This document shows positions 44,627 to 60,830 of a DNA stretch of 64,000 nucleotides, piece by piece. Each line of letters starts with the position of its first letter. The first letter of the stretch is position 1. The stretch is from NCBI GenBank assembly GCA_965366815.1, contig CBDUGV010000002.1:758-64757 (forward strand), given 5' to 3'. Under the pieces are notes generated by a model. It did not search any database, was not told the origin of the DNA, and saw nothing but the letters and a program-made list of their open reading frames with translations. Position numbers and translations under genes: made by a program. Source of the stretch: an uncultured Bdellovibrionales bacterium (GTDB lineage: Bacteria; Bdellovibrionota_C; UBA2361; SZUA-149).

Positions 44627-46398
44627 GAATTTTTCGCGCAGCACTTTTCTCTGTCTTCGTTAATTTAGGCAGTGCTTTTGTGCTTTTGCGGTTCGGCGCA
44701 CTGCACATTCTTTCGTTCTCAGGAGTAGACGAACTTGCCTATCTACCCCAATCACTGAAACTCGCAAGTGGGCACCCCCCAACTTTTTTTCATAAAGAAC
44801 TCGATACGCCTTATGTGCCAGGAGCAAATCTCCTAGATAGCCACTCCACACCATTGGACATTGCGGTGGGTTCTCTTGGCAACTTGTTGGGGTTTGCCCC
44901 GGCTGAGCTTGGATTTGCTCTCGATCTCATTTGTGTATTTCTCTGCTATTTATTGTTTTCCAAGTTCTTTCAACTCTTTGCGGAGAATAAATTGTATGCC
45001 GAAGTTGCAGCCATCATTGCCTTAGCTATTCCGCGCCTCTTTGCGATAGATGGACTCTTTCTTCTTCCATCACCATTTGGTGAATTCGTTTTGAACGAGA
45101 AAATCTCAGTGACTTCAGCCTTGCCTTTCGTCCGGGGCGTATATACGCAGCTAAGTTACCTTTTTTATCCTATGGTGCTCGGACTAGGCAGCTTTGCCAT
45201 ATTGAATAGATACAATCTTCGAGCCTTTTTCTTTTCCGGTTTGCTCGCTGGATTGAGCATTCATCTATATTTTTTTGCATGGGCAGCTGGATGCCTGTTA
45301 ATCCCTGTCACAGCCTGTATATACTTTTTAGGTGCTCGCAATTGGAGGGAGGGTGGTTGGCGCAGCTTTTTGTTTGGCATGCTGGTCTTTGGAATTGCTT
45401 CACTTTCCGGCTCGTTGTTAGGCCTCTATTCGATTCTATTTGGTGCCGGAGGGTTGACGACCGTCGACGCTCCTGAAGTAGGCTGGTATTGGTATTTTTC
45501 GCCTGAGGTATTCTTCCTATTGGTCTCCTGTCTCTTGTGTAGTTGGTTCTCAACGAGCCTATCTCCAAAGGGCCGGCTTATTGCGAGTATTTGTGCCGGC
45601 TGCTTTTTTCTTCAGCTCTTTTTTATGAATGCACAGGCTGCGCTTGGAGTAATTATTTCCCCGTTTCGCATCGTATCCATCTATCTCCAGCCAATCGTGA
45701 CAGGTTTGTTTACGATAGTAGTATTTCGTTTTTTGGAAAGATTTCAATCGAATAGATTGACCATGGTAACTGCGTGCCTGCTTCTTGCAGTTGTTTTTGT
45801 TCCTGCTACAAGAAAACACGTTGAGGCGTACCATTTTAAAGAATCTTGGCTTGATTATGAGCTCTCCAAGTATTTAGTGGAGAACACGGAAGTCGATTCC
45901 GTTCTGGCCATTTGGCTTACCACCGGAGTTCTCGATTTTGTACCGGAAACCTATCCCCTCCGTTTGTTACCGACTACAGTGGCGGCAACTTCCGGTCGGC
46001 CTATTCTTGCACAGAGCTGGATAATTCCTCGCGGGCTAGATCTTGCACAACTGACAGGTCGCGAGCTTCTTCTCGGATGGCTTTACACGGGAACTCCTCG
46101 ATTCGCTGTGCCTTGCATCGAAAAAATACCTTTTCCGGGCGATCTACTAACCCTCACTTGGACTGGTCATTTGCACATAAGAAAGAGCATGTGTGAATTG
46201 CAAGAGAAGAAAAAATTGGACAAATGCGTGCTGCTCAATTCGTTTACAGTGGACTATGTCCTCTGGGATCTGGCCAACCGATCAATTCCCACAGAAGTAG
46301 AACCGTTTCTCTCGAAAGTATGGCAGTTTTCTGAAGGAGAAGCCGTGCTATACAGATTCGACCAAGACGCCGCGATTCGCACGTTGTGTGTCGAGTAG
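44623..46398 (+). CDS. Polytopic GT-C-like glycosyltransferase (PMT/ArnT-like) with DE motif in first extracytoplasmic loop
   Basis: 591 aa, >10 TM, GVDELAYLPQS after TM1, C-terminal soluble domain. Confidence 0.45.
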   Translation: MRIFRAALFSVFVNLGSAFVLLRFGALHILSFSGVDELAYLPQSLKLASGHPPTFFHKELDTPYVPGANLLDSHSTPLDIAVGSLGNLLGFAPAELGFALDLICVFLCYLLFSKFFQLFAENKLYAEVAAIIALAIPRLFAIDGLFLLPSPFGEFVLNEKISVTSALPFVRGVYTQLSYLFYPMVLGLGSFAILNRYNLRAFFFSGLLAGLSIHLYFFAWAAGCLLIPVTACIYFLGARNWREGGWRSFLFGMLVFGIASLSGSLLGLYSILFGAGGLTTVDAPEVGWYWYFSPEVFFLLVSCLLCSWFSTSLSPKGRLIASICAGCFFLQLFFMNAQAALGVIISPFRIVSIYLQPIVTGLFTIVVFRFLERFQSNRLTMVTACLLLAVVFVPATRKHVEAYHFKESWLDYELSKYLVENTEVDSVLAIWLTTGVLDFVPETYPLRLLPTTVAATSGRPILAQSWIIPRGLDLAQLTGRELLLGWLYTGTPRFAVPCIEKIPFPGDLLTLTWTGHLHIRKSMCELQEKKKLDKCVLLNSFTVDYVLWDLANRSIPTEVEPFLSKVWQFSEGEAVLYRFDQDAAIRTLCVE

Positions 46399-46526
46399 CC
46401 ACCACCGTAGCAGGATTCGTATTGGCAAACATTAAGATAACCGATAGGTTAGCCAAGACGGCTTTGAGCACATAGGACCGCATGCGTGTCGAACAGCTTT
46501 TAACCCATCTATGAAAAAATTCTGAA

Positions 46527-47570
46527 ATGACGACTCAGCCAGACAAGCTTATTCTCTCACTCGTCACTCCAGTGTATCGGGGTGAAGAGTACCTTGAAAA
46601 ACTGGCTGATTCTATCGATGCGCTACGCAAAGAATTTGAGCAAGAAAATGCTCCGATTGAATTGGCTGAGGCAATTTTTGTCGACGATAGTTCGATCGAT
46701 AATTCCGACGAAGTACTTCGAATGTTAGAGCAGAAGTATTCTTGGGTCCGGGTAATTTACTTGTCGCGGAACTATGGACAGCATTCTGCAACTATTGCTG
46801 GGATTCTCCATTCGGTCGGTGATTGGATTGCGACAATTGATGAAGATTTACAACATCATCCGGTAAACATTCCATTGATGCTCGCTCAGGCAGTGAGAGA
46901 AAGCCAAGACATAGTATACGCGAAACCGATTGATGCAGTGCATGGCTCTTGGTATCGAGATGTCTCCTCTCGTGCAATTAAGTGGTTTGTAAGTATCTTG
47001 GTTGAAAACGATAATGTAAGAAAGTTCAATAGCTTTCGCCTCATTCGTGGCAGTGTGGCGAGGGCTGCTGCCGCGGTGGCATGTCACGATACATATTTCG
47101 ATATGGCGCTTTGTTGGTTTAGCAATCGAATCACTGGCATTCGACTCAATCTCAAAGATTCGAGGTATCAGCAAGAAGCGGTCAGTGGATATACGTTTCG
47201 CGCTCTGATGGCTCATAGCAGACGCTTGTTAATTTCTTCTCCGAGCCGACTTCTTCGCATGAGTTCGGTGTTTGGAATTATGGCACTGGCTGGAAGTTTG
47301 GTCGTAGCTGTTTTCATTCTTTTCTCAAAGCTTATGTATCCCGATACAATTACGGTGAGTGGTTGGACCACATTAATGATCTGGGTGCTCTTCTTTGGTG
47401 GCCTTACTTCGTTTATGTTAGGAGTAATGCTGGAATATTTTTCAGTAGTCGTACTTCAGGTTCAGGGCAAACCTTCTTTTTTCGTAATCGATCGCAGTAG
47501 TGACTCGATATTAAACAATTGGATCGCTCGGATCCCTCAGCATGCAAATCTTGTGTCAAAAATCGAATAG
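46527..47570 (+). CDS. GT2 polyprenyl-phosphate sugar synthase (GtrB/ArnC/DPM1-like) with two C-terminal TM helices
   Basis: GT-A N-terminus LSLVTPVYRGEEYL, FVDDSSIDNS (DxD), NYGQHSA. C-terminal TM pair. Confidence 0.75.
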   Translation: MTTQPDKLILSLVTPVYRGEEYLEKLADSIDALRKEFEQENAPIELAEAIFVDDSSIDNSDEVLRMLEQKYSWVRVIYLSRNYGQHSATIAGILHSVGDWIATIDEDLQHHPVNIPLMLAQAVRESQDIVYAKPIDAVHGSWYRDVSSRAIKWFVSILVENDNVRKFNSFRLIRGSVARAAAAVACHDTYFDMALCWFSNRITGIRLNLKDSRYQQEAVSGYTFRALMAHSRRLLISSPSRLLRMSSVFGIMALAGSLVVAVFILFSKLMYPDTITVSGWTTLMIWVLFFGGLTSFMLGVMLEYFSVVVLQVQGKPSFFVIDRSSDSILNNWIARIPQHANLVSKIE

Positions 47571-48507
47571 CACTTCAGCTGGCTATTGTGTTGTCTTGTT
47601 TGGACTAGGCTTGATTGGCTCGGAGATCTCGCTTCAGTTGAAACGATCGGGGGCAGAGCTCTGTTTTGAACAAAGGATGCCTTGGTTGGATCATTCGCGA
47701 TACTCTCAGATACTGCAGCAACTCGAAATACAGTTGGGAAGTATCGCCACAGAAGCTAATCACGACAGACCTCGCAATCTGAAGTTTCTTTGGAGCGCGG
47801 GCAAAGCAGGTTTTTCTGCAGGCGAGAAAGACGCAGAGATAGAATTGGCGGTCTTTCAACGATTCTTGAGAAGCGTTGAGTCGATAGAACAAAAGGGTTG
47901 TTTTTCTAGCGTTTCTGTTATCTTGATTAGTTCAATCGGCGGATTGTTTGAAGGGCAACGGCTTGTTTCGAGAGGATCAACCCCGACGCCTTTGCGGCCC
48001 TATGGGGATCTCAAATTACGTCAAGAAGCCTGTATCGCTGAGCTACCTAGGACGATCCGACACCATATTCTACGGGTGACCTCTGTGTATGGCATACCGC
48101 GGACGGGACAAAGGCGTGGACTCATCCCTACATTCATTGTGAACGGTCTGACACAGCGGATCACGAATATTTCGGGTTCGTTGACGACACTGCGCGATTT
48201 CATTTGGAATGCTGATATCGGCAAAGCCGTATTGCAGATTCTTAGAGAGCCGATCGACGGAGATAGAATTAGCAGCAACACTCATGTGCTGGCGAGTGCT
48301 AAACCTTCATCTATTATGGAGATTCAGCAGGCTGTGGAGGAAGTAGTCGGGCGAAAGCTATATATTGCATTGAGTTCTACTCCCTCGAACATGGCAGATA
48401 TCAGTGTCTCGCCGAAATTAACTGCTCGTTTTTTTTCTAGCTCGGAATTGAGAGTTTGTGTTCGCAATATTTACTTGGATATTGTTCGCTCTGGTATGAG
48501 TATATAA
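47542..48507 (+). CDS. SDR-family reductase, RmlD (dTDP-4-dehydrorhamnose reductase)-like
   Basis: GLGLIGSEI Rossmann motif. PLRPYGDLKLRQE resembles RmlD YxxxK region (P.N.YG.TKL.GE). 29-nt overlap with the upstream GT2. Confidence 0.45.
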   Translation: MQILCQKSNSTSAGYCVVLFGLGLIGSEISLQLKRSGAELCFEQRMPWLDHSRYSQILQQLEIQLGSIATEANHDRPRNLKFLWSAGKAGFSAGEKDAEIELAVFQRFLRSVESIEQKGCFSSVSVILISSIGGLFEGQRLVSRGSTPTPLRPYGDLKLRQEACIAELPRTIRHHILRVTSVYGIPRTGQRRGLIPTFIVNGLTQRITNISGSLTTLRDFIWNADIGKAVLQILREPIDGDRISSNTHVLASAKPSSIMEIQQAVEEVVGRKLYIALSSTPSNMADISVSPKLTARFFSSSELRVCVRNIYLDIVRSGMSI

Positions 48508-48524
48508 CGAGGAATGTAGAGAAA

Positions 48525-49541
48525 ATGGCCCTCTCTTGTCGCGTATGCCACAATGCTGATGGAAACCTCTCATACACTTTGCGAGAGATGCAACTTGGTA
48601 TGCGAGATACCTTTAGCTACTTTCAATGTGCTGAATGCCAGTGTATGCAAATTGTTGAGGTTCCTGAGAATCTCGAGAAGTACTATGGGGAGGGGTATTA
48701 TTCTCTTTCTCCAACCTTTGATAGTCCACTGCAAAAACTCTTTTTTGCTTTCGTGGCACTCTTTGCGCCGTTTATCCGAATTGCGATTGCGAGTAGAGGT
48801 TGGTTCGGCAGATCTCTTCGAGAAATTCTTGGACGACTCGATCTGCGACTCTTGATACTTGAATCAGTAAGTCGCTGCAACCTTTCCACTTCATCCCGGA
48901 TATTGGATGTTGGGTCGGGAGCGGGCTTTATATCATACTGTCTTAGGCAAACTGGCTTCGCATATATTAAGGGGATAGACCCTTTCATACAAAAGGATCT
49001 TCACTACCGAAATGGACTTGAGATAGTTAAAGCTGATTTGGTTAATTATGCGCAAAAAACTGAAGAGCGATTCGATGTTATAATGTTTAATCACTCGTTT
49101 GAACATTTGGAGAATCCGAAAGAAGTACTTGATGCAGCAGCTGCTATTCTTAGCGAGGAAGGAACGATTCTTCTTCGTATGCCAGTAATCGATTGTTATG
49201 CGTTTGAAGAGTATGGTGAAGATCTTGTTTCACTCGATGCTCCTCGTCATCTGATAGTTCATTCAAGGCGTTCGACAGAAATAGTCGCCGCAGAATGTGA
49301 GTTAGAAGTTGTTGAAGTGTTTTATGACTCAAACGAATCTCAATTCTGGGCAAGTGAGCAGTATCAGAATGATATCCCACTTGAGGCTCCTGAGTCGTAT
49401 CGACATAATAAGAAAGACTCAATATTCTCAAAGTCCCAGCTGTGCGAGTTTAGGAAACGTGCTCGTGAGCTTAACAGTCAGGAAAATGGTGATTGGGCCG
49501 CTTTTTATTTAAAGAAAAAGCTTCGCTTAAATCAGAAATAG
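48525..49541 (+). CDS. Class I SAM-dependent methyltransferase with N-terminal CxxC...CxxC zinc ribbon
   Basis: CRVCHNADG...FQCAECQC, then motif I LDVGSGAGFISYCL and motif post-I. Start at MALSCRV (ATG 48525). Confidence 0.65.
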   Translation: MALSCRVCHNADGNLSYTLREMQLGMRDTFSYFQCAECQCMQIVEVPENLEKYYGEGYYSLSPTFDSPLQKLFFAFVALFAPFIRIAIASRGWFGRSLREILGRLDLRLLILESVSRCNLSTSSRILDVGSGAGFISYCLRQTGFAYIKGIDPFIQKDLHYRNGLEIVKADLVNYAQKTEERFDVIMFNHSFEHLENPKEVLDAAAAILSEEGTILLRMPVIDCYAFEEYGEDLVSLDAPRHLIVHSRRSTEIVAAECELEVVEVFYDSNESQFWASEQYQNDIPLEAPESYRHNKKDSIFSKSQLCEFRKRARELNSQENGDWAAFYLKKKLRLNQK

Positions 49542-49548
49542 TCTGCTG

Positions 49549-50373
49549 ATGTCTTCTTCATCAATTGTAATACCGGTATTCAATGGAGCCCGCTTTATTC
49601 GGAAAACGATAGAGTCTGTTTTGCTTCAGACACATGAAGATTTTGAATTGCTCATAGTGGATAATGTTTCGACGGATGATACTCTTGAAATTGCTAATTC
49701 TTTTAATGATCCACGAATGAAGGTAATTGCAGAGTCTAATCATGTAAATTTACCTGCTAACTTCAATAGAGCGCTTACCCATGCAAAGGGTAAGTACATT
49801 AAGATTCTTCCTGCCGACGATCTTCTCCATCCAACCTGTCTTGCGAAGCAGTTGCAGTGCTTTGAAGAGCACGCTGACAAAGACATTGCTATTGTCAGCT
49901 GCTATCGAGATATCATTAATGAATCGGGGAAACGATGCGTTCCGGCTAATCCCAAGTTCAAAGGCTTAATTGACGGCAACCATGCGGTTCGTCGAACAGT
50001 TCGAGCTGGAGCCAATATTCTTGGAGAGCCTGGTGCAACTCTAATGCCAAGGCAGCTCTTGATTGATGTTGGTGGCTTTAATGTGACTTTGCCATTTGTG
50101 TCCGACCTCGACCTTTGGTTTCGTGCGCTACGTAATCGAAGCTACTTTGTCTTTCCGGAAGTCCTGACGAGTTTTCGAATTTCACGTTTTTCGATGAGCT
50201 ATGTGCTACAGAGCGAACAAACCAGACAGTACCATCAGCTTATACGAAACGCCGAAGCTGATGCTGACTTTGGGATATCCCTATATGACAGCGTTGTTGG
50301 AAGGTGGAATTCTTTCGTGAGAGCACAGACTCGATGGCTCGCTTATCGCTTGTTGTTGTCACGCCACCATTGA
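49549..50373 (+). CDS. GT2 family glycosyltransferase (soluble GT-A)
   Basis: SIVIPVFNGARFIRKTIESVLLQT, LLIVDNVSTDDT. No TM helices. Confidence 0.75.
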   Translation: MSSSSIVIPVFNGARFIRKTIESVLLQTHEDFELLIVDNVSTDDTLEIANSFNDPRMKVIAESNHVNLPANFNRALTHAKGKYIKILPADDLLHPTCLAKQLQCFEEHADKDIAIVSCYRDIINESGKRCVPANPKFKGLIDGNHAVRRTVRAGANILGEPGATLMPRQLLIDVGGFNVTLPFVSDLDLWFRALRNRSYFVFPEVLTSFRISRFSMSYVLQSEQTRQYHQLIRNAEADADFGISLYDSVVGRWNSFVRAQTRWLAYRLLLSRHH

Positions 50374-51251
50374 ATTGTCTGCTCCAAGCCTTGAGGGAGT
50401 TCGATACTGGGATTCCAACCAAGTGCATCTTGTAAGAGACTCGTATCTGCGGAAATGACATCAGGATCGCCCTCAGGTCGGCTCAAAGCGCCGAAGCTGG
50501 GACCACTGTTAGTGCCGTATAGGTCACAAATAGTTTGAACAACCGTACGTATTGAAACACTTGCTCCTGAGGCTATGTTTACTGCTCCGGTGAAGTTGCT
50601 TTCTAAGAGCCGAACAAGAGCAGAGCCTGCATCTGTGACATGAAGATAGTCTCTCTTTTGAACACCTTCTGAGCAGAGAATCTCTCTACCTTCGATGAGT
50701 GAAAGTATTGTTGCGGCAACAAGTCGCTTGCAATGCTCTCGAGGTCCATACAAGTTAAATAGGCGTGCCCACGCGCATTCAAATCCTGCCCTCTCAGCAA
50801 ACGCTTCGCTGACAGACCGAACAGCGTTTTTACATACGCCATAGAGTGTGCTGGGCCGTAGAGGAGTCTGCGATTCTAAACAGGGTTGATCGGACCACAG
50901 ATATTCGGCACAGGATCCTATTAGCACGGCTCGTGTGCCACCGTATCGAGAAAACGATTCTAGGAGATTTGTCGTCGCAGCAATCCAATGCAAATTCGAA
51001 GTACCATTCCAGAATTCTGACGGCTCTGTTACCCAGGCCAAGTGCAAGAGATGGGTAGGTAAGACTTTTTGTATGAGGGCCTCAACCCCTTTCGGGTCAT
51101 GAAGATTAACTAGGTGATGCGTTACTTGTTGTTGCTCCAGCACAAATGCGTTTCGCGCACAGGTGTGGACTTCCCAATCAGAGGTATTAATTTGGGCGAT
51201 GCAACTATGTCCAATGAAGCCGGTGCCACCGGTAACCAATACTCTATTCAT
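50343..51251 (-). CDS. NAD-dependent epimerase/dehydratase-family SDR (probable nucleotide-sugar 4-ketoreductase or epimerase)
   Basis: VLVTGGTGFIGHS, YGVCK (YxxxK). Last gene of the CDP-sugar operon. 31-nt convergent overlap with the GT2 on the + strand. Confidence 0.7.
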   Translation of the reverse strand: MNRVLVTGGTGFIGHSCIAQINTSDWEVHTCARNAFVLEQQQVTHHLVNLHDPKGVEALIQKVLPTHLLHLAWVTEPSEFWNGTSNLHWIAATTNLLESFSRYGGTRAVLIGSCAEYLWSDQPCLESQTPLRPSTLYGVCKNAVRSVSEAFAERAGFECAWARLFNLYGPREHCKRLVAATILSLIEGREILCSEGVQKRDYLHVTDAGSALVRLLESNFTGAVNIASGASVSIRTVVQTICDLYGTNSGPSFGALSRPEGDPDVISADTSLLQDALGWNPSIELPQGLEQTIQWWRDNNKR

Positions 51252-51260
51252 AACTTCAAT

Positions 51261-51791
51261 CTAAATCGAAAAATCTGCAAACTCTCGATCTCGTCGTGAC
51301 ATAATCGGATCCTGTATCGGCCAGTCGATGTTAAATGTCGGATCGTTCCAACGCACACCGTTTGATGCACCCGGGTCGTAGAGTTCTGACATTTGGTAGT
51401 GAACCTCGGTTTCGTCTTTTAAGGATTGGAATCCATGTGCAAAACCTTCAGGAATATAGAGCGCATTGCGATTATGTTCAGAAAGCTCTATTCCAATCCA
51501 GTTGCAATACGTCTTTGATTCGGGTCGCAGATCAATCACCACATCATAGAGCGCGCCTCGACTGCATCGGACTATCTTAGTTTCGGCTTTCGGTGCATTC
51601 TGAAAATGCATACCCCGTAAGGTTCCTTTGGTTTTATTGAAAGAGATATTACATTGTCGAAAAGAATGGACGAGACCGTGCTCAGCAAATTCTTGTTCAC
51701 ACCAAGAGCGAGCAAAAAAACCTCGTTCGTCTTCAAACTGCTCTAACTCAATTAGAAAAACATCAAGTAGAGCGAGCGGTTTAAAAATCAC
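51261..51791 (-). CDS. RmlC-like cupin, dTDP/CDP-4-dehydro-6-deoxyhexose 3,5-epimerase family
   Basis: 176 aa. RGMHFQ and FARSW motifs of the dTDP-sugar isomerase cupin fold. Confidence 0.75.
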   Translation of the reverse strand: MIFKPLALLDVFLIELEQFEDERGFFARSWCEQEFAEHGLVHSFRQCNISFNKTKGTLRGMHFQNAPKAETKIVRCSRGALYDVVIDLRPESKTYCNWIGIELSEHNRNALYIPEGFAHGFQSLKDETEVHYQMSELYDPGASNGVRWNDPTFNIDWPIQDPIMSRRDREFADFSI

Positions 51792-53014
51792 GATACTACC
51801 GTGGGTTCAGGTATCGCGACGATGAACTTTCCACCGCGATTCGCAAATTCAGCCTGCTGTCGGATTATTTCATTTTTTAGGTTCCAAACAAGAATGACCA
51901 AATAGTCTGGTTGTCGTTTGTCAAACTCTTTTGGTGATACCACTGGAATGTGGACTCCTGGCATAAGACGATCCTGCTTCAACGGATTACGATCGACAAC
52001 AAAATCTATGGTTTCGATTCCTATTTCGCAATAGTTTAGTAGAACAGCCGCCTTCGCTGCTGCGCCATATGCAGCAATCGACTTACCTTCTGCCTTGAGT
52101 TTTGCAAGCATTGTAAGAAGTGAGTCCTTAATTGCAGCTACTCTAGTTGCGAACTGCAGATAATAGCCATCCCTATCGACCCCGCTCTCCTTCTCATTCC
52201 GAATAAGTTGTTCGACACTTGGAGAGGCGGGCAATGTGGTAGATCCTACAGTGATTCGCAATGAACCTCCATGGATTGCTACCTGTTCAACATCGATAAC
52301 GTGCATGTCGTAACGAGCAAACAGGCTCTTCAGAGAATGCAAAGAGAAATAGCAAAGATGCTCGTGATATATAGTGTCGAACTCGACATTCGATATCATT
52401 TCGACGAGGTAAGGTACTTCGATGACCGCAACTCCGGCTGGTTTTAAAATTTCTCGAATGCCAGCAACAAAACCGCCTAGATTCGCTACATGTGCAAGCA
52501 CGTTATTTGCTAAAAAAACATCCGCTTTTTTTCCAGATGCGCTCAACTGTTTGGCTACTTCGAAAGAGAAGAACTCGTTTATCGTATCTATTCCTTGTTC
52601 CTGGGCAATTTTCTGAATATTCGATGCTGGTTCTACGCCTAGGACCGAGATGCCAGCTTCTTGGAACACCTTAAGCATGTACCCGTCATTGCTACCTGCC
52701 TCGATTACGAGGCTCTCTGATCCCAACTTCCGTGATGAAATTATCGCACTAGCAGACTGTGCCGAATGAGCAAGCATAGTTTCCGAAAAACTAGAGAGAT
52801 AAAGATACTCGGAAAACAATATTTCCGGCGGGACTGTTTCAGTAATTTGCACAAGAGTACAAGAAGGACAAAAAACGACATCTAGGGGATAGCGTGGTTC
52901 GTCCTCAATCGAATTGTCTTCGGAAAGGAGACTATTGGCAAGAGGCATCCTACCAAGATCTAAAACCTCAACCAGATTCTCGGAATTGCAGATACGACAA
53001 CTAAAGGCACTCAT
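51788..53014 (-). CDS. Nucleotide-sugar C-methyltransferase (TylC3/NovU-like; Zn-binding N-domain, SAM methyltransferase, C-methyltransferase C-domain)
   Basis: N-terminal CRICNSENL...CPSCTLVQ zinc-binding domain. Central SAM motif, 408 aa as typical for the family. 4-nt overlaps on both sides. Confidence 0.65.
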   Translation of the reverse strand: MSAFSCRICNSENLVEVLDLGRMPLANSLLSEDNSIEDEPRYPLDVVFCPSCTLVQITETVPPEILFSEYLYLSSFSETMLAHSAQSASAIISSRKLGSESLVIEAGSNDGYMLKVFQEAGISVLGVEPASNIQKIAQEQGIDTINEFFSFEVAKQLSASGKKADVFLANNVLAHVANLGGFVAGIREILKPAGVAVIEVPYLVEMISNVEFDTIYHEHLCYFSLHSLKSLFARYDMHVIDVEQVAIHGGSLRITVGSTTLPASPSVEQLIRNEKESGVDRDGYYLQFATRVAAIKDSLLTMLAKLKAEGKSIAAYGAAAKAAVLLNYCEIGIETIDFVVDRNPLKQDRLMPGVHIPVVSPKEFDKRQPDYLVILVWNLKNEIIRQQAEFANRGGKFIVAIPEPTVVS

Positions 53015-53976
53015 TTTTTATTCCTGAAATACTCTCGATACCAATCAACCGTATGTGAAAGAGCTGCGTCGATTGCAAATTTCGGTTTCCAACCCAATAC
53101 TGTCTTTGCTCTCTGAGAATCTAAGATTTGTTCAATTATCTCGCCTTTGTTGCTGCCGAGAACCTCTGGTTCAATCTCGGGCACTTTCATGATGGTCTGT
53201 AGGAGCATTACAATATCTAAAACGCTCATCTTAGTCTCAGCACTAAAATTGAAAGCATTGCCTGGAACTTCGGGGTTTTCGATACTCTCAGCAAGCAAGA
53301 GAAACGCTTGAACTGCATCTTCGACATAAAAGTAGTCGCGAATTAGTGTCCCGTCAGAACGAATCACTGGTGACTCACTATGCAAATAGGCACGTATCGT
53401 TCCTGGAACAATGCGACTCCAGTTCAAATCGCCTCCGCCGAATACATTACCACAGCGCGCGATAGTTACTGGGAGTCCAAAAGAGTGATGATACGAAGAC
53501 GAAAGTAGATCCGTACAGCTTTTAGAGACGTCGTAGGGGTTTCTTCCGACGAGCGGATGATCCTCTTTGTACGGTAATTCGACTCCTTTTCCGTAGGCTT
53601 TATCGCTAGAGGATACGACCACCGCCCTTATCTGTTTCTCGTGCCTTCGACAGGCTTCCAATAAATTATAAGTTCCGCGAATATTTGTCTCAAACGCAGC
53701 TAAAGGATTTCTTTGAGCCGATCCGACAAGCGATTGAGCGCCCAGATGAATAACAGTATCAATTGCGTGGTCAACAATAGCGCGCTCCAGGCATGCAATA
53801 TCTTCAAGAGAGCCTGTCGCCACGGTGATGTTTTTCACCATGGATTCCTTAATCAAGGTTCGCTGGGTGTTCCAGTTGCGAACAAGGGCAACTACGTTTA
53901 CAGAGCGACTCAGCAACTCTGCTACGAGGTGAGAACCAATGAGTCCACTTGCTCCAGTGACAAAAACGTTCCGCAA
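53011..53976 (-). CDS. CDP-glucose 4,6-dehydratase-like extended SDR
   Basis: VFVTGASGLIGSHL, YDVSK. ARCGNVFGGGDLNWSRIVPG resembles the RfbG-specific segment. Adjacent to rfbF. Confidence 0.65.
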   Translation of the reverse strand: MRNVFVTGASGLIGSHLVAELLSRSVNVVALVRNWNTQRTLIKESMVKNITVATGSLEDIACLERAIVDHAIDTVIHLGAQSLVGSAQRNPLAAFETNIRGTYNLLEACRRHEKQIRAVVVSSSDKAYGKGVELPYKEDHPLVGRNPYDVSKSCTDLLSSSYHHSFGLPVTIARCGNVFGGGDLNWSRIVPGTIRAYLHSESPVIRSDGTLIRDYFYVEDAVQAFLLLAESIENPEVPGNAFNFSAETKMSVLDIVMLLQTIMKVPEIEPEVLGSNKGEIIEQILDSQRAKTVLGWKPKFAIDAALSHTVDWYREYFRNKK

Positions 53977-54006
53977 TGAGCTATCCCCTCTGAAGTGCTT
54001 AAAGTA

Positions 54007-54774
54007 TCACCAGATTTTCCACGGCGCTTTGCCCGAGGCCCAAAGGCTCTCAAGCAATCTTAGATCTCTTTGAGTATCCATGCATTGCCAGAAATCGAAG
54101 TGCTTGTATGCCTGCAATTCATTGTTCTTCGCGAGCTTTTCTAGTGGATCGCTTTCCCAAACGGTATCATCGTTTTCGATAAGTTTAATCACACTTGGTT
54201 CGAGTACAAAAAATCCGCCATTCACCCACCCCTCACCTATCTGCGGTTTCTCCTCGAAACTTTGAACTGCGTCGCCCGCTAAGGTGAGACCACCAAATCG
54301 AGCTGGCGGTCGAACCGCAGTCACTGTTGCTTGCTTTCCATGTGCTTCATGAAATTCAAGTAGTTGTGCAATATCCACGTTTGCAACGCCGTCACCATAG
54401 GTGAGAAAAAAACGCTCACCTTCAAGTAGTTGCGAAACTCGCTTTATCCGTCCACCGGTCATCGAGGAAATCCCTGTATCGTGCAGATGGACAGTCCAGT
54501 CTTCGCTTGGAGAGGTTTTAGGAGTGACTTCCCCATTCGCCAGATTGACGCTGAGATCCGACGAAAGTAGGCTGTATTGCATGAAATACTGTTTGATGAT
54601 CTCAGCCTTGTATCCAAGAGCAACAACGAACTCATTAAAGCCATAATGGGAAAAATGACGCATGATATGCCAAATGATTGGGCGGCCGCCAATTTCTACC
54701 ATTGGCTTAGGTCGAGTCGCAGTCTCTTCAGATAGGCGCGTGCCGAAGCCACCTGCGAGAATAACTACTTTCAT
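54007..54774 (-). CDS. rfbF: Glucose-1-phosphate cytidylyltransferase
   Basis: MKVVILAGGFGTRLSEETATRPKPMVEIGGRPIIWHIM is the canonical RfbF N-terminus. Start at the internal Met (ATG 54774). Confidence 0.85.
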   Translation of the reverse strand: MKVVILAGGFGTRLSEETATRPKPMVEIGGRPIIWHIMRHFSHYGFNEFVVALGYKAEIIKQYFMQYSLLSSDLSVNLANGEVTPKTSPSEDWTVHLHDTGISSMTGGRIKRVSQLLEGERFFLTYGDGVANVDIAQLLEFHEAHGKQATVTAVRPPARFGGLTLAGDAVQSFEEKPQIGEGWVNGGFFVLEPSVIKLIENDDTVWESDPLEKLAKNNELQAYKHFDFWQCMDTQRDLRLLESLWASGKAPWKIW

Positions 54775-55033
54775 ACAATTACCGTATTTGCTGATGCGGC
54801 ATAGTCTAGGCCGGTTATTAGATATCAATTAAACGTCAAATTAGGTATTCAATCAACTGTTTTTGACCTGAATGAAAAGGATTGTTGTTGGTCGTTGCAT
54901 CATGAACCCAAGTTACAGAATGCAGATGCAACGCGTGCCAATTCGGTTTCCTAACCAGTCATAACTAAGTAGGATTCAGTTACCCCCACGGAGAGTCTAT
55001 GTAAGAAATTGACCAATTTTAGATTGAAAAGTA

Positions 55034-56254
55034 ATGAGAGAGAGTACTCTATTTCCTCGAGACAGAATCAACCTGTTTTGTTGCCTTCTGTTCCTGGTGT
55101 TGTTTGGAACCTCCGTTGTTATCGATCGGGTCCTCTACGAACCCCAATCTTCTGGTTTTCTCGGACTCGGAACTCATGATTTCATTCAGCTCTGGACCGC
55201 GTTTCGCCTCTTTATCGTTGATAAGAATTTCTACGACCCCGCCTTAATTGGTCCACTTGAATACGCGTTGGGGTGGAATGAAGTTACACCTCTTTTGGTG
55301 TGGTACCCGCCTTGGTTATTTACCGTGATGGGGCCCGTGCTTTCGCTTGAGTCATTTGCGCATTCAGCTAGGCTTTGGACAATCTGCAATATTTTTTTCC
55401 TCGTGGGTAGCATCCGACTCTTGTCATCCCTCTATTGGAGAGATGAAGTTCCAATTCCCCCGATAGTTCTAACTCTCGCGTTCATACCAGTTGCGCAGTG
55501 CTTTGATTTTGGGCAAACTTCCCTACTCATTCTCTTCTTTATTACACTCTTTGTCTGGGCTTCGTCTCGGGGGCACTCGTTTTTGATGGCGCTGTCCTTC
55601 GTGGTTCTCTCAGTAAAACCACATCCACTCTATCTGTTTCATTTTTGTGCCGCCATTTGGATAATTCGAGAGAGAAACTGGAAGCTGATTGGATATTTCC
55701 TTCTTCTGTTTCTAACGCTGCTTACCTTCACTTTCATTATTTCTCCAACTGCGATTCCAAACTGGTTACATAGTTTTAGCTCCCCACCCATGCACTGGAT
55801 TACTGTGACCTTAGCGGGCTTCTGTCGCTTTTCTTGGAGCTTGATTACAGATGGCGAGGTGATCAATTGGCCGGTTTGGGGAATTCCTTTAGCTACTCTT
55901 GTTGGATTTAGTTGTTGGTATGCATCGCGAGTTAGGGCAGATCCAGCATTTACTATTGACTGGCTCAAGATCGCCCCGCCATTGACAGCTCTTTCGATTT
56001 TTACCGCTCCATACGGGTTTCTCTACGACCATGCACCAGTTGTGGTATCGCTCTTTGGAATCTGCAACAGAGAAGTCTGTGTGAGATATTCGTTTCTTTG
56101 GAAGATATTGTTGGTGATGCTAGTTCTTGCTGCGATAGCCCAAGGTAACGGAATGCCCGACCAGTTCTTCTTCTGGATGCCGTTTGCCGTATTGGTGTTT
56201 TGGAGTCGAAGTAGGCGAGTTCCATGGAGGCTGCAAGAAGCAGTTCAGAAATGA
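55034..56254 (+). CDS. Polytopic membrane protein, DUF2029/GT87-like GT-C glycosyltransferase (paralog 1)
   Basis: ~10 TM. YPPW-type motif (VWYPPWLF), APYGFLYD motif shared with paralog 2. Confidence 0.45.
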   Translation: MRESTLFPRDRINLFCCLLFLVLFGTSVVIDRVLYEPQSSGFLGLGTHDFIQLWTAFRLFIVDKNFYDPALIGPLEYALGWNEVTPLLVWYPPWLFTVMGPVLSLESFAHSARLWTICNIFFLVGSIRLLSSLYWRDEVPIPPIVLTLAFIPVAQCFDFGQTSLLILFFITLFVWASSRGHSFLMALSFVVLSVKPHPLYLFHFCAAIWIIRERNWKLIGYFLLLFLTLLTFTFIISPTAIPNWLHSFSSPPMHWITVTLAGFCRFSWSLITDGEVINWPVWGIPLATLVGFSCWYASRVRADPAFTIDWLKIAPPLTALSIFTAPYGFLYDHAPVVVSLFGICNREVCVRYSFLWKILLVMLVLAAIAQGNGMPDQFFFWMPFAVLVFWSRSRRVPWRLQEAVQK

Positions 56255-57558
56255 CAGCTATTGATCGACTACGGCCGCCTGTGTTCTTGCTCTCCGGATT
56301 GCTGCTGAGCTACTGGGGAATCACAGCAGCCTTACACCATAGCTTTCCCACTTTGATTTCCTTGTATCAACAAGTCCCCAACGACTTTTTGGCCTTTTGG
56401 TCGGCATTTCAGGTGTTTGCTGAAGGTGGAGACCCTTATGATTTGGCACTGCTAGAGGAAGTTCAAAAGCAGGTACATCCGGCTTTTGAAGGAGCACAGT
56501 TTTTCCTAAGCCCACCTTGGCTTCTCGTATTGTTTGCTCCAATTTTTTCATTGGATTTCTTTACGGCGAAGGATGCCTTCTTTGCCCTTAGTTGTTTTTC
56601 GTTTGTCGGTATCGGCTATTTTTCAACTGGTCTATTTTCTTCAAAATTCGATTCGCGGAGCGGACGGGCGTTATGTGCTGGCACTGTAACCGCAGCGATA
56701 TGCTTGTTGTTTGGGCAATTGACACTGTTCGTTGGGTTGGCTGTCCTTGGTTTTATCTACTCTATTGAAAAGCGCCATGATTTATCGTGCGGTCTCTGGA
56801 TGCCAGCGATTCTCTTGAAGCCTCATCTTTCCATTTTAGTACTTGCCGCGACTGGACTACTCGTTGTCTTTCAGCGGCGTCAAAAGATTGCGATATCAAT
56901 TCTCATAAGCATGGGTTCGTTTGCCCTGCTACCTGTGTTGCAACGGGCAACTGTATATGTCGATTGGTTTGGTGCCAGAAAACTCGCCGAAAGTAATGTA
57001 AGTGCAACATTGCCCTCAGTGCTATCGTTTCTGCTTCAGCCGCACCTTACCTGTCTCTTGCTCGGAACCGTATTGGGATACTTTGTTCTAAGAAGCTATA
57101 AGTCTCCAGTTGTTGCACTTATTGCTACTCTCTCTTTTGTAGCTGGACCAATTTTTCTCCTAAGTCGAACTGAGTTTGGAGCGGATATTATGGGCCAGGT
57201 GCAGTATATGCCAATTGCTTTAGCTGTTGTGATCATCTGCTATCGTTTGCGAAATGAGCTCGACACCTTTTCGCTGCTAGATTATTCGCCCGCGTTGATT
57301 ACAGCCTCCCTCATATTTGCGCCCTATGCTTGGTTTTATGATTTTGTATTGCTGCTCCCAGTGGCGGTTTACATCGTTTCTAGTCGTAGGGGGCCAGCGT
57401 TACTCCTATTTTCCGCGATAAATCTCCTTGCCGGAGTGCAGTTGTTACTTCACCCAAATCTGGCTGCACTCTTCTGGTATCCATTCTTTGTTGCGGCACT
57501 TTTCCTGTTGCGACCACTGAACAGTATGATCGAGGAGAAGACGAATGGAAGTGTGTAG
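56224..57558 (+). CDS. Polytopic membrane protein, DUF2029/GT87-like GT-C glycosyltransferase (paralog 2)
   Basis: LSPPWLLVLF and APYAWFYDF motifs colinear with paralog 1. 31-nt overlap with paralog 1. Confidence 0.45.
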   Translation: MEAARSSSEMTAIDRLRPPVFLLSGLLLSYWGITAALHHSFPTLISLYQQVPNDFLAFWSAFQVFAEGGDPYDLALLEEVQKQVHPAFEGAQFFLSPPWLLVLFAPIFSLDFFTAKDAFFALSCFSFVGIGYFSTGLFSSKFDSRSGRALCAGTVTAAICLLFGQLTLFVGLAVLGFIYSIEKRHDLSCGLWMPAILLKPHLSILVLAATGLLVVFQRRQKIAISILISMGSFALLPVLQRATVYVDWFGARKLAESNVSATLPSVLSFLLQPHLTCLLLGTVLGYFVLRSYKSPVVALIATLSFVAGPIFLLSRTEFGADIMGQVQYMPIALAVVIICYRLRNELDTFSLLDYSPALITASLIFAPYAWFYDFVLLLPVAVYIVSSRRGPALLLFSAINLLAGVQLLLHPNLAALFWYPFFVAALFLLRPLNSMIEEKTNGSV

Positions 57559-58843
57559 CAGGACATTTCGTCGACTCATTGAAAGCCAGCAGCCCATCTG
57601 GAAGTTTTCTCGTTGGTGCTGCCTTTTCGCGCTGAGCATTGGAGCAATAAAGACATTGCTCGATTCATTCGCCGCCTTGAAGTCCCCTCTCGTGTTTCGC
57701 AAAGATTTCCTGCAGGACTACCTTATTGCGCTCGCTCAACTCGACGGTCAACTTGTATACCAGCCGATAAATAAGCTGGCGGCACGTTTTGTCGAAACTC
57801 AGGGACTGGACCTCTTTTATCATCCTACGCCACATCCACCTTCGCTTCTCCCTTATCTTTTGCCGTTTGGGTTGACGTCCTATTCTGTTGCTGCGGCAAT
57901 TTGGTTGTTGCTCGAATTGCTCTGTCTCCTGCTAATCGCAAGACATTTACAAACGATACTGAGTTTGTCGCTCAAGTCGATGGGCGTAGTTTTTCTATTT
58001 CTTCTTTGTGCGCGTCCGATTTACGTCGAGCTCGTGCTGGGGCAAATAGGTTTGCTACTTGCCGTTTTGGTTTGCCGTTTGCTGTCATCTATTGAGCATG
58101 GCCGCAGTACCGAGGCTGGAGTTCTTCTCGGGTTAAGCATGTCGATAAAGTTCTTTGGAGCACCTATATTGTTGTATCTTCTGCTTAAACGACAATGGAG
58201 AACACTTTTCGCCTCCGCTGCGGTGTTCCTTTCGTCGTGCGCTGCGTTTATTGGGCTTCAGGATTTCAACAGTTTCCTTGGGTACTTTACTCAGGTCGTG
58301 CCTCGTGTATCTCAGTTGTATCGACTTGATGAACACAATCAGTCGCTGTGGACCATCGGAACACGCCTCTTTCAGGGGCTTCAGCCGGGTGGACAGATTA
58401 CGATAACGGCTCCCCCGCTCGTGCATGCACCAGAGATTGCCACTGTCGTTTCGGGGATACTCATTTCTGTCATTCTTCTTGGTTTGTACCTAAAGACAAA
58501 GAAAGATGATTTATTCGTAGGCGTCTGCTGTGTTGCGGCAATTGCTCCAATCGTCTCACCAGTTGCTTGGGTTCATGGCATGCTCGTACAGCTGGCTGTG
58601 CTGCCGTATCTTCTGAGACGCTGTCGGCTCATTGATGCGAGAAACGGAACCTATTGTGCCCTATTCGTCTTGTGTCTCTTTATGTTTTTAGGCGACGAAC
58701 TTCGCAATGCACTTATCGGAGAGCGCTATCACGTCTCATTCATTGAAGGGTGGGTCTCGGCGATTCCGATGATCACTATGATCGCGTTTACCTTCCTTGC
58801 GACCCAGATTCTCACCGAGAGGGGAGAGGCGAAAGTTACTTAA
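57545..58843 (+). CDS. Polytopic membrane protein, divergent DUF2029/GT87-like paralog 3
   Basis: Same size and topology, HPTPHPPS loop, SMSIKFF block colinear with VKPH/LKPH of paralogs 1 and 2. 14-nt overlap. Confidence 0.4.
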   Translation: MEVCSRTFRRLIESQQPIWKFSRWCCLFALSIGAIKTLLDSFAALKSPLVFRKDFLQDYLIALAQLDGQLVYQPINKLAARFVETQGLDLFYHPTPHPPSLLPYLLPFGLTSYSVAAAIWLLLELLCLLLIARHLQTILSLSLKSMGVVFLFLLCARPIYVELVLGQIGLLLAVLVCRLLSSIEHGRSTEAGVLLGLSMSIKFFGAPILLYLLLKRQWRTLFASAAVFLSSCAAFIGLQDFNSFLGYFTQVVPRVSQLYRLDEHNQSLWTIGTRLFQGLQPGGQITITAPPLVHAPEIATVVSGILISVILLGLYLKTKKDDLFVGVCCVAAIAPIVSPVAWVHGMLVQLAVLPYLLRRCRLIDARNGTYCALFVLCLFMFLGDELRNALIGERYHVSFIEGWVSAIPMITMIAFTFLATQILTERGEAKVT

Positions 58844-59660: not shown

Positions 59661-59701
59661 AAGAAGATAGAATAACCGAGTTAAAAAAGTTGGTTTTCAA
59701 A

Positions 59702-60505: not shown

Positions 60506-60830
60506 GACGTACGAGAGGAATGAACAACCCAACGAGTGTTGATTCCGATAGTAGTACTCCTTATTCCCTTCAGTATGCGCTCTAAATCTGCTTCGAGAAA
60601 TGTATTCGGAGAATGGACTTCTTATTCTCAAAGTAGCCACTATAGATCGGCCTGACTAGGCATATCTGTCGTGTAAATGTCGAATAGAGTTCTACACAAA
60701 AACGCCAAAATAAAGCTAGAAAAACCACCAGGTTAGCAAAGTCTCCGAGCAAAAAGACGACATCGGTCAGACGAAAAGGGCTCGGCTCGCTACCCTTAGA
60801 CCTCTTCTCAAAGCAGTTCTGGAGGTCCCG

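Follow-up and report, generated by a model that had tools for sequence, protein, structure and literature searches.

A five-gene operon of an uncultured Bdellovibrionales bacterium predicted to make a CDP-activated C-methyl-branched 6-deoxyhexose

Known routes to C-methyl-branched and CDP-linked sugars

The late steps of dTDP-L-mycarose synthesis, i.e. methylation of C3 next to the 4-keto group (3-C-methyltransferase TylC3/EryBIII), 5-epimerisation by an RmlC homologue (TylK/EryBVII) and 4-reduction (4-ketoreductase TylC2/EryBIV), are the same as those proposed here for a locus within a 64,000-nt stretch of DNA (the window) from an uncultured Bdellovibrionales bacterium. The methyltransferase of this pathway, as well as MtmC, TcaB9 and KijD1, has its family and catalytic motifs in common with the enzyme of the window. 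However, the mycarose pathway acts on dTDP-linked 2,6-dideoxy substrates in antibiotic clusters of actinomycetes, while the window has a cell-envelope locus with CDP as the predicted carrier and the 2-hydroxyl predicted to be kept. The same five enzyme types as in the window make up the dTDP-linked L-noviose pathway with methylation at C5: a nucleotidyltransferase, a 4,6-dehydratase, an RmlC-like epimerase, a TylC3-family C-methyltransferase and a 4-ketoreductase (NovV, NovT, NovW, NovU and NovS). The CDP-ascarylose pathway of Yersinia pseudotuberculosis (AscA-F) shares with the window the RfbF and RfbG-type entry on CDP-glucose and the final 5-epimerase and 4-reductase acting on a CDP-4-keto sugar, while its middle steps are 3-deoxygenation (E1/E3) in place of C-methylation.

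Okuda, Suzuki and Suzuki reportedly obtained vinelose (6-deoxy-3-C-methyl-2-O-methyl-L-talose), which the original prediction listed among the TDP- or GDP-linked sugars, as CDP-vinelose from Azotobacter vinelandii in the 1960s. Its 2-O-methyl group aside, it belongs to just the class of sugars, CDP-activated 3-C-methyl-6-deoxy-L-hexoses, that a cereose-type pathway would be expected to yield after addition of a 5-epimerase. We know of no genes assigned to vinelose, and a search of a limited set of papers for 'vinelose' gave no match.

As cited in PMC10050317, the CDP-cereose/CDP-cillose pathway of Bacillus cereus ATCC 14579 was characterised by Li et al. (2017, J Biol Chem 292:7636, doi 10.1074/jbc.M117.777417), and PMC7725333 treats it as established. 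The route leads from CDP-glucose through the 4-keto and C-methylated intermediates to the 4-reduced sugar, and the operon resembles that of the window in its CDP carrier, RfbF-type enzyme, CDP-glucose 4,6-dehydratase, TylC3-family methyltransferase and 4-reductase, as well as in supplying a surface glycan, as proposed for the window, with a 3-C-methyl-6-deoxyhexose. A four-gene operon of the same architecture in Bacillus sp. N5-665 encodes proteins 52% (RfbF), 33% (dehydratase), 44% (methyltransferase) and 35% (reductase) identical to those of the window. The window differs by an RmlC-type epimerase added between the methyltransferase and the reductase, by a dehydratase of 321 aa compared to the canonical Bacillus enzyme of 351–359 aa, by its diderm Bdellovibrionota-like host in contrast to a spore former, and by its expected product, the C5 epimer (L-series) of the Bacillus sugars.

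A further relative is found on pSymB of Sinorhizobium meliloti 1021, where SMb21416-21418 are annotated side by side as ddhA, ddhB and NDP-hexose 3-C-methyltransferase (PMC4053727). In this and other clusters of this kind ('type B'), RfbF is directly upstream of the methyltransferase (48% identical to that of the window), as in the window, while the SDR between them has only about 23% identity to the window enzyme and is unrelated in detail, RmlC is absent, and the methyltransferase is followed by one or two more paralogues of the zinc-ribbon type.

Operon structure

The minus strand of the window contains five head-to-tail ORFs at 50343-54774, exactly the span from which a five-gene operon had been predicted, and the coordinates and family assignments of all five were borne out:

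54007-54774, minus strand: rfbF/ddhA-type glucose-1-phosphate cytidylyltransferase (RfbF; ATG start, 255 aa; TIGR02623, PF00483)
53011-53976, minus strand: short CDP-glucose 4,6-dehydratase-like extended SDR (TTG start, 321 aa; TIGR02622 as the best model, below its cut-off)
51788-53014, minus strand: SAM-dependent NDP-hexose C-methyltransferase of the TylC3/TcaB9/MtmC family (ATG start, 408 aa; PF08421, PF13489, PF08484)
51261-51791, minus strand: RmlC-type cupin epimerase (GTG start, 176 aa; TIGR01221, PF00908)
50343-51251, minus strand: extended SDR, putative reductase (ATG start, 302 aa; PF01370, E 1.1e-36)

Strong profile matches for all five ORFs identify them as real genes rather than chance ORFs. 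Instead of the three 4-nt overlaps described originally there are two, in which the stop of the dehydratase and the start of the methyltransferase share ATGA (53011-53014) and the stop of the methyltransferase and the start of the epimerase share GTGA (51788-51791), while the remaining junctions are gaps of 30 nt (RfbF to dehydratase, both in the same frame) and 9 nt (epimerase to reductase). The TTG start of the dehydratase is preceded at 8 nt by a Shine-Dalgarno-like GAGGGG, and the spacer between RfbF and this TTG has no other start codon. Because a scan for consensus promoters and terminators found no more sites than in shuffled sequence, the operon status is based on spacing and conserved synteny, and on these grounds 50343-54774 is a genuine five-gene operon. 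The gene order is also the order of the proposed reactions.

Proposed pathway and product

With the enzyme assignments holding, the reaction series suggested before, from CDP-glucose through the 4-keto-6-deoxy sugar, C-methylation beside the keto group and epimerisation to 4-reduction, is reasonable. RfbF would form CDP-D-glucose from CTP and glucose-1-phosphate, and the short SDR would oxidise C4 and eliminate water across C5/C6, yielding CDP-4-keto-6-deoxy-D-glucose. The TylC3-type enzyme would then deprotonate C3 next to the 4-keto group and add a methyl from SAM, resulting in a quaternary C3 with both OH and CH3. Since the methylated C3 would lack an exchangeable proton, the RmlC-type epimerase would invert C5. 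Reduction of the 4-keto group by the last SDR, at the expense of NAD(P)H, would complete the series. Relative to cereose or cillose of Bacillus, the resulting sugar would be the 5-epimer, i.e. a 3-C-methyl-6-deoxy-L-hexose, presumably of the L-series, with 3-C-methyl-L-rhamnose and 3-C-methyl-6-deoxy-L-talose (the vinelose skeleton) as candidates; 3-C-methyl-rhamnose has been found in a bacterial O-polysaccharide (PMC7203242). Overall, it is quite probable that the operon is a self-contained module for a CDP-activated C-methyl-branched 6-deoxyhexose destined for a surface glycan.

The first enzyme matched TIGR02623 end to end (residues 1-255 of 255; 379.5 bits, cut-off 300.25) as well as PF00483 in profile searches, which places it in the RfbF family and suggests that it makes CDP-D-glucose. 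For the last one, matches were limited to generic SDR models, and none of the specific NCBIfam models reached its cut-off; it contains a TGGTGFIG motif together with S113, Y137 and K141, and the final gene product of the Bacillus sp. N5-665 operon is related to it along all 302 aa (E 3.6e-62), consistent with a NAD(P)H-dependent 4-ketoreductase completing the CDP-sugar. Judged from context alone, the methyltransferase, epimerase and reductase are all likely to use CDP-linked substrates.

Distribution of the gene cassette

Of 67 related loci from many phyla, including Acidobacteriota, Planctomycetota, Chloroflexota, Verrucomicrobiota and Myxococcota, and from one Methanomassiliicoccales archaeon, 60 had an RfbF homologue (47-64% identity) no more than 3.5 kb upstream of the methyltransferase. 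Among the 63 loci with both flanks, 22 had the core of RfbF, short dehydratase, methyltransferase and RmlC ('type A'), with the RmlC homologue directly downstream of the methyltransferase; ten of these also had a reductase of the window type (30-44% identity) downstream of the epimerase. The core was present in the cultured planctomycete Gemmata algarum JC673 and in one archaeon. The cassette is thus common in environmental microbes. A CDP-linked C-methyl pathway with an RfbF/RfbG entry had been thought uncommon and possibly new, which does not agree with the RfbF linkage in 60 of 67 loci, with the CDP-cereose/CDP-cillose pathway of B. cereus or with the annotation of S. meliloti pSymB. With the same chemistry described in 2017 and the cassette this common, the operon represents a variant extended by one epimerase step rather than a pathway of a new type.

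Epimerase and the configuration at C5

The epimerase scored 192.5 bits against TIGR01221 (cut-off 155.75) and matched PF00908 at E 1.1e-65. Its best PDB matches were dTDP-4-dehydrorhamnose 3,5-epimerases (E 5e-45), followed at E 3e-34 by NovW (2c0z), and H62, K72, Y132 and D168 occupy the aligned catalytic positions. It would act on C5 of a CDP-4-keto sugar, and also on C3 if it preceded methylation. Without its epimerase gene the operon would match the four-gene architecture of Bacillus, and it might accordingly make D-series CDP-cereose or CDP-cillose, or a C3 epimer of it, with the RmlC-like protein either acting elsewhere, on a second, unmethylated CDP-6-deoxy-L-hexose, or being only a 3-epimerase or a chaperone-like partner. 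Mono-epimerases are indeed known among RmlC homologues (NovW), the 3-epimerase of the D-allose pathway (4hn0) was also among the matches, and five loci had the short dehydratase and the methyltransferase with no epimerase. Nevertheless, such an outcome is unlikely: the gene begins within the stop of the methyltransferase gene and immediately follows the latter in the 22 type A loci, the protein scores above the equivalog cut-off for RmlC and has the full set of catalytic residues, and its nearest solved relatives are true 3,5-epimerases.

Methyltransferase and the site of methylation

The methyltransferase contained all three domains of the sugar C-methyltransferases (PF08421, E 3e-24; PF13489, E 4.5e-18; PF08484, E 3.4e-59), and its only PDB matches, all of full length, were MtmC (4rv9, E 1.3e-104), KijD1 (5t64, 1.5e-84) and TcaB9 (3ndi, 1.9e-83), so that its grouping with these enzymes was upheld. 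The CxxC...CxxC noted in the 408-aa protein corresponds to a Cys4 zinc motif (C6, C9, C49 and C52) that is conserved along with Y70/Y72, H175 and Y216-H217-E218-H219. The protein was about as similar to MtmC (TDP-linked, 43% identity) as to the CDP-linked enzyme of Bacillus (about 44-45%). In a crude neighbour-joining tree, the RfbF-linked methyltransferases were separate from MtmC and KijD1, both TDP-linked.

The nearest characterised relatives suggest methylation at C3. In a noviose-like order of reactions, for which the five enzyme types and the NovW match of the epimerase would be in place, the epimerase would act first and C5 would then be methylated, giving after 4-reduction a CDP-5-C-methyl (gem-dimethyl) 6-deoxy-L-hexose; moreover, the C5-methyltransferase NovU (Q9L9E7) and the C3 enzymes are listed together as one 'nucleotide-sugar C-methyltransferase' family in the supplement of PMC7725333. 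We consider this order unlikely, since the characterised relatives compared (MtmC, KijD1 and TcaB9, NovU not being among them) are all C3-methyltransferases, another relative belongs to the Bacillus operon with the cereose (3-C-methyl) architecture, and the methyltransferase gene precedes the epimerase gene.

Short dehydratase and its nucleotide specificity

The best NCBIfam model for the 321-aa SDR was that of CDP-glucose 4,6-dehydratase (189.3 bits, below the cut-off of 278.45), with 172 bits for the dTDP-glucose dehydratase model. Searched alone against the PDB, the protein matched epimerases and dTDP-glucose dehydratases with similar strength, the top match, UDP-glucose 4-epimerase 4zrm, being in a near-tie with a dTDP-glucose dehydratase. 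A family profile built from 20 homologues ranked the CDP-glucose 4,6-dehydratases 1rkx (184.5 bits) and 1wvg (181.3 bits) first, above the dTDP-glucose dehydratase 6bi4 (165.3 bits), which goes against dTDP or GDP specificity of the enzyme. In alignment with the CDP-glucose enzymes, SSDKAYG corresponded to TSDKCYD and PYDVSKSC to PYSNSKGC, and GGGD..R was common to both. The Ser-Asp-Lys and Tyr-x3-Lys catalytic motifs are kept, with S124, D125, K126, Y148 and K152 invariant in the family; the Asp125-Lys126 pair we take to be typical of CDP-glucose dehydratases. The homologues are labelled CDP-glucose 4,6-dehydratase in JGI and GDP-mannose 4,6-dehydratase, CDP-glucose 4,6-dehydratase or YfnG in NCBI. 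The family adjoins RfbF in other genomes, in keeping with the earlier assumption that RfbF supplies the substrate of the dehydratase.

The conserved Ser/Asp/Lys and Tyr/Lys set and the fixed place between RfbF and the methyltransferase suggest that the protein makes CDP-4-keto-6-deoxy-D-glucose. That it instead acts as an epimerase, or dehydrates some other nucleotide sugar so that the pathway has a different entry, would fit the sub-cut-off score, the 4zrm match and the GDP-mannose labels but is highly improbable in view of the family profile, the invariant residues, the constant gene position in related loci and an operon with no other dehydratase candidate, where the C-methyltransferase would have no substrate without a 4-keto product.

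Flanking genes

Four glycosyltransferase genes are located around the operon:

46527-47570, plus strand: ArnC/PgfS-like GT2, candidate polyprenyl-phosphate sugar synthase (PF00535)
49549-50373, plus strand: GT2 glycosyltransferase, candidate sugar-nucleotide user (PF00535, E 6e-28)
55034-56254, plus strand: GT87 (GT-C type) membrane glycosyltransferase (PF09594, E 3.8e-10)
57545-58843, plus strand: GT87 (GT-C type) membrane glycosyltransferase (PF09594, E 3e-27)

The sugar is probably used for an envelope glycan of the diderm host, to which the products of the neighbouring GT2, flippase-like and GT87 genes would attach it; the acceptor is a guess, since these glycosyltransferases do not recur with the cassette. 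The GT2 at 49549-50373, for which all NCBIfam matches were below the cut-off, shows only generic GT2 similarity to genes next to the cassette in other loci; it is convergent with the operon, the 3' ends overlapping by 31 nt. The two GT87 genes (55034-58843) are divergent from rfbF and flank a 444-aa ORF with no family match in the Pfam and NCBIfam profiles. The GT2 at 46527-47570 aligned over its full length, though below threshold, with the model of the undecaprenyl-phosphate Ara4FN transferase and with PgfS, at 107 bits each.

Organization of the operon

The gene cluster originally predicted to make a CDP-linked C-methyl-branched 6-deoxyhexose was recovered as five consecutive ORFs on the minus strand, occupying 50343-54774 with exactly the predicted ends:

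54007-54774, minus strand: RfbF, 255 aa from an ATG start, N-terminus MKVVILAGG
53011-53976, minus strand: short dehydratase, 321 aa, TTG start with GAGGGG ahead of it
51788-53014, minus strand: C-methyltransferase, 408 aa
51261-51791, minus strand: RmlC-type epimerase, 176 aa, GTG start
50343-51251, minus strand: SDR reductase, 302 aa

The five-gene observation is real, except for the number of overlaps: 4-nt overlaps had been claimed at three junctions, which is wrong because only two junctions overlap (ATGA at 53011-53014 and GTGA at 51788-51791), while the other two are spacers of 30 and 9 nt. The RfbF and dehydratase ORFs lie in the same frame, and no start codon is present upstream of the dehydratase TTG. 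Scanning of 49400-55200 for consensus promoters and terminators produced fewer sites than shuffled sequence and was, therefore, uninformative on the operon boundaries. Recent horizontal transfer of the operon was considered and rejected, since its GC content (45–47%) is close to that of the surrounding DNA and gives no such signal.

Identity of the five enzymes

The placement of the third protein among sugar C-methyltransferases was confirmed by its domains, all above cut-off (PF08421, 85.4 bits; PF13489, 66 bits; PF08484, 199.7 bits), and by its only PDB matches, the solved C-methyltransferases MtmC (E 1.3e-104), KijD1 and TcaB9. The three-part architecture, consisting of an N-terminal zinc-binding domain, a class I SAM methyltransferase domain and a C-terminal domain, is complete. 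Residues C6, C9, C49, C52, Y70/Y72, H175, Y216, E218 and H219 are conserved in the alignments with 24 homologues and with MtmC and KijD1, as is the YHEH active-site motif; the four cysteines are presumably zinc ligands and the Tyr, His and Glu-His residues presumably act in the active site, as in the TcaB9 work.

RfbF matched the curated equivalog model of glucose-1-phosphate cytidylyltransferase (RfbF/DdhA, TIGR02623) end-to-end (1-255 of 255) with 379.5 bits against a cut-off of 300.25, in agreement with its original assignment. The epimerase likewise proved RmlC-like, scoring 192.5 bits against the RmlC equivalog TIGR01221 (cut-off 155.75), with His62, Lys72, Tyr132 and Asp168 aligned to the RmlC catalytic residues; that it acts on a CDP- instead of a dTDP-linked substrate we infer from its context only. 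As expected, the product of the last gene is an extended SDR; its Ser113, Tyr137 and Lys141 triad is intact, and the protein matched no specific family among the curated NCBIfam models.

The second protein was more difficult to place. It had been described as an RfbG-like CDP-glucose dehydratase, but its score against TIGR02622 (RfbG/DdhB), although the top NCBIfam model, was 189.3 bits, below the curated cut-off of 278.45, and in length it falls some 35 aa short of the CDP-glucose 4,6-dehydratases of solved structure. PDB ranking with the single sequence put an epimerase almost level with a dTDP-glucose and a CDP-glucose dehydratase. With a family profile of 20 homologues, the two solved CDP-glucose 4,6-dehydratases, 1rkx (184.5 bits) and 1wvg (181.3 bits), ranked first, while the best dTDP-glucose dehydratase scored 165.3 bits. 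In the profile alignment the motifs SSDKAYG, PYDVSKSC and GGGD..R correspond to those of 1rkx/1wvg (TSDKCY, PYSNSK), and Ser124, Asp125, Lys126, Tyr148 and Lys152 are invariant among the 20 homologues. The Asp-Lys pair is a trait of the CDP-glucose dehydratases (1rkx, 1wvg), the dTDP-glucose enzymes having Asp-Glu instead. The RfbG-like reading thus stands on profile ranking and catalytic motifs and not on the curated cut-off, and we conclude that the second gene encodes a putative, short-variant enzyme of the CDP-glucose 4,6-dehydratase type, which stays below the formal threshold but has its catalytic machinery intact. Its homologues carry different names in public records (CDP-glucose 4,6-dehydratase, GDP-mannose 4,6-dehydratase, YfnG), and a literature search on yfnG/yfnH matched only sporulation transcriptome papers.

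Comparison with known CDP-linked C-methyl pathways

A CDP-linked C-methyl pathway with an RfbF/RfbG entry point had originally been considered uncommon. This view has to be abandoned: the pathway type is already known (PMC10050317; PMC7725333), and the cassette is common. Cereose on Bacillus cereus spores is mentioned in a passage of PMC10050317, citing Li et al. 2017 (J Biol Chem 292:7636), while a survey of 12,939 genomes listed CDP-cereose and CDP-cillose among the pathways starting from glucose-1-phosphate, with this pathway in 81 of them, representing 22 species (PMC7725333). The same survey included the B. cereus proteins Q81B31 (407 aa), an experimentally characterised nucleotide-sugar C-methyltransferase, and Q81B32, among the CDP-glucose 4,6-dehydratases (PMC7725333). 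In the annotation of Sinorhizobium meliloti 1021, ddhA, ddhB and an NDP-hexose 3-C-methyltransferase stand side by side (PMC4053727).

Exactly the cereose four-gene architecture was found in Bacillus sp. N5-665, whose RfbF (255 aa) and methyltransferase (407 aa) are 52 and 44% identical to those of the window, respectively. Its dehydratase is canonical (359 aa) and only 33% identical to the short one of the window, while its reductase (307 aa), the fourth gene, is 35% identical to the window protein over the full length of 302 aa (E 3.6e-62); this comparison, made with the N5-665 protein, marks the window SDR as a candidate CDP-3-C-methyl-6-deoxyhexose 4-reductase. The 2017 cereose work of Li and co-workers reportedly described four activities, namely CDP-glucose synthase, CDP-glucose 4,6-dehydratase, SAM-dependent C-methyltransferase and 4-reductase, and its products are said to be CDP-3-C-methyl-6-deoxygulose and probably also its allose 4-epimer. 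In contrast to the cereose/cillose operon, which has exactly four activities and no epimerase, and to the N5-665 locus, which lacks RmlC, the window operon has all four with an RmlC-type epimerase inserted. The gene for the latter begins within the last 4 nt of the methyltransferase gene and, as a fifth gene, places the operon outside a strict four-activity definition of CDP-cereose/cillose. Relative to the known pathway the operon is, therefore, new in two respects: it has an additional epimerase, and its dehydratase is short.

Distribution of the cassette in other genomes

An alignment of methyltransferase homologues was used to scan one genome per prokaryotic species; from at least 599 matches the 80 best were retained, and the five window proteins were mapped onto these loci. 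The S. meliloti pSymB and Bacillus sp. N5-665 loci, for which the PLSDB annotation was empty, were annotated by tblastn and ORF listing. Among these best 80 of at least 599 matches, RfbF was present on the same strand within 3.5 kb upstream in 60 of the 67 loci with enough upstream sequence, and 28 loci had the dehydratase gene placed between those of RfbF and the methyltransferase, a fixed arrangement that agrees with the predicted conversion of CDP-glucose to CDP-4-keto-6-deoxyglucose. Two architectures dominated the 63 loci of this set having both flanks: type A (22 loci) and type B (28 loci).

Type A has the gene order of the window, i.e., RfbF, short dehydratase, methyltransferase and RmlC. 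Within the best 80 matches its short dehydratases were 42–56% identical to that of the window, a window-type reductase was also present in 10 of the 22 loci, and the hosts belonged to Acidobacteriota, Planctomycetota, Chloroflexota, Verrucomicrobiota and Myxococcota, together with a Methanomassiliicoccales archaeon (L023). Named hosts were the cultured planctomycete Gemmata algarum JC673, in which all five genes of the cassette are present (L029, 7951-12803), and Candidatus Oscillochloris fontis (Chloroflexota). In many type A loci two proteins stood in place of the window-type reductase, a SDR (about 270 aa) and a second one of about 255 aa; in L008, L013, L030, L036, L051, L060 and L069 these two follow the epimerase gene, the latter protein containing WLGRPIIQLPED, a motif which we take to resemble the CmcI/rhamnosyl O-methyltransferase family. 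If it is CmcI-like, the reductase-less type A loci may produce an O-methylated vinelose-like derivative.

Type B combines RfbF with another SDR, about 350 aa long and unlike that of type A, and the methyltransferase, has no RmlC, and often includes one or two extra zinc-ribbon methyltransferase paralogues after the methyltransferase. It was represented by S. meliloti pSymB (L083), Leisingera plasmids (L085) and further loci (L019, L024, L025, L064, L075, L079), and its gene content suggests another CDP-sugar, possibly multiply methylated. A methyltransferase homologue with 45% identity on a B. cereus plasmid (L084; NZ_CP129006.1, 7001-8224) had neither RfbF nor a reductase nearby, only a 32-aa dehydratase-like fragment just upstream, and had sulfotransferase and IS200/IS605 transposase genes as neighbours; this could be either a remnant or a locus of different organisation.

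Identity of the window methyltransferase was 43% with MtmC, 45% with its Bacillus counterpart and about 52% with the type A and type B enzymes; raw identity does not separate the nucleotide carriers well. In a tree, which was a crude neighbour-joining one without bootstrap, the RfbF-linked methyltransferases (window, types A and B, and Bacillus) were placed apart from the TDP-linked MtmC and KijD1. None of the genes flanking the operon in the window, those for glycosyltransferases, a methyltransferase and a flippase included, was conserved beside the cassette in the mapped loci, so the cassette acts as a sugar-nucleotide module that can be carried from one setting to another. The operon sequence was present on metagenome contigs as well.

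Proposed pathway and product

The operon most likely encodes a pathway of the cereose type to which one step has been added, and the biochemical reading originally proposed for it is sound and strengthened by synteny. CDP-glucose would be made by RfbF and dehydrated to the 4-keto-6-deoxy sugar by the predicted dehydratase, followed by putative methylation at C3 through the enolate adjoining the keto group, epimerisation at C5 by the RmlC homologue and, finally, reduction at C4. Epimerisation would be directed to C5 because the methylated C3 has no exchangeable proton. The C5 epimers of the 6-deoxy-D-gulo and 6-deoxy-D-allo configurations are 6-deoxy-L-manno and 6-deoxy-L-talo, respectively; therefore, with all stereochemistry inferred, the product should be either 3-C-methyl-L-rhamnose or 3-C-methyl-6-deoxy-L-talose, the latter being the skeleton of vinelose. 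Vinelose, which had been listed with the TDP- or GDP-linked sugars, was isolated from Azotobacter vinelandii as a CDP derivative. We know of no genes assigned so far to sugars of the 3-C-methyl-rhamnose or vinelose type. In the literature covered here, searches for vinelose and for C-methyltransferase together with CDP-glucose gave no match. The O-polysaccharide of Burkholderia andropogonis contains 3-C-methyl-rhamnose itself (PMC7203242).

The main rival to C3 methylation is methylation at C5, which takes place in the noviose pathway with an identical set of five enzyme types; against it, the solved relatives of the methyltransferase, in a compared set made up of MtmC, KijD1 and TcaB9, are all C3-methyltransferases. 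We see the chances as evenly balanced that the cassette is the genetic basis of the L-series 3-C-methyl-6-deoxyhexoses (3-C-methyl-L-rhamnose as in the B. andropogonis O-antigen and the 6-deoxy-3-C-methyl-L-talose of CDP-vinelose), widely exchanged across at least six bacterial phyla and a Methanomassiliicoccales archaeon, and containing CDP-glucose 4,6-dehydratases of a separate short class that curated models miss. If so, a common five-gene cassette would be tied to rare branched envelope sugars, while the short dehydratase class is flagged as falling under the curated family threshold and inconsistently labelled in public records; both points would be of use in annotating glycan loci of uncultured bacteria. 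The understanding of sugar C-methylation remains unchanged, since its enzyme families and mechanism, like the CDP carrier, were established before.

Genomic setting

The window includes the following replication genes:

27449-29020, minus strand: dnaA
25732-26922, minus strand: dnaN
24532-25698, minus strand: recF
21860-24319, minus strand: gyrB
19309-21828, minus strand: gyrA

The GC skew turns at about 28–30 kb, with its cumulative minimum just upstream of dnaA; together with these genes this identifies 19309-29020 as a chromosomal replication-origin region. The nearest named GyrB relatives (72–74% identity) were from Bdellovibrionota, Bdellovibrionales and Oligoflexia MAGs. Neither Rfam nor tRNA scanning of the window gave a match, and an exact-sequence cluster look-up of its proteins returned no names.

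A phosphate-acquisition block is located at 2929-10109, and its phosphate-selective porin points to a diderm cell envelope:

2929-4215 and 4208-5581: Pst-type permease genes
6885-8102: phosphate-selective porin O/P
8287-9408: HAMP/HisKA sensor kinase

The operon itself is embedded in a glycan-assembly locus (43628-50373 and 55034-60640):

43628-44626: flippase-like protein
44623-46398: 591-aa ORF of no known function
46527-47570: ArnC/PgfS-like GT2
48456-49541: class I methyltransferase
49549-50373, plus strand: GT2, convergent with the reductase gene
55034-56254 and 57545-58843: GT87/GT-C enzymes, with a 444-aa ORF of no known function between them
58836-59660: TrmB-like regulator
59702-60640: further GT2

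This gene content resembles that of periplasmic glycosylation with polyprenyl-phosphate sugars and, as a guess, suggests transfer via such a carrier to an envelope acceptor. A dedicated sugar O-methyltransferase role for the 361-aa methyltransferase near the operon was considered and dropped because the flanking genes do not travel with the cassette. The 321-aa ORF at 47542-48507 showed similarity to NAD-dependent epimerases/dehydratases confined to the C-terminal part (residues 140-240, E 1e-6) and may represent an SDR that has degenerated or diverged; its last 52 nt are shared with the beginning of the next methyltransferase ORF, counted from the annotated TTG of the latter. The reductase gene on the minus strand and the GT2 gene on the plus strand converge, and their 3' ends have 31 nt in common (50343-50373).
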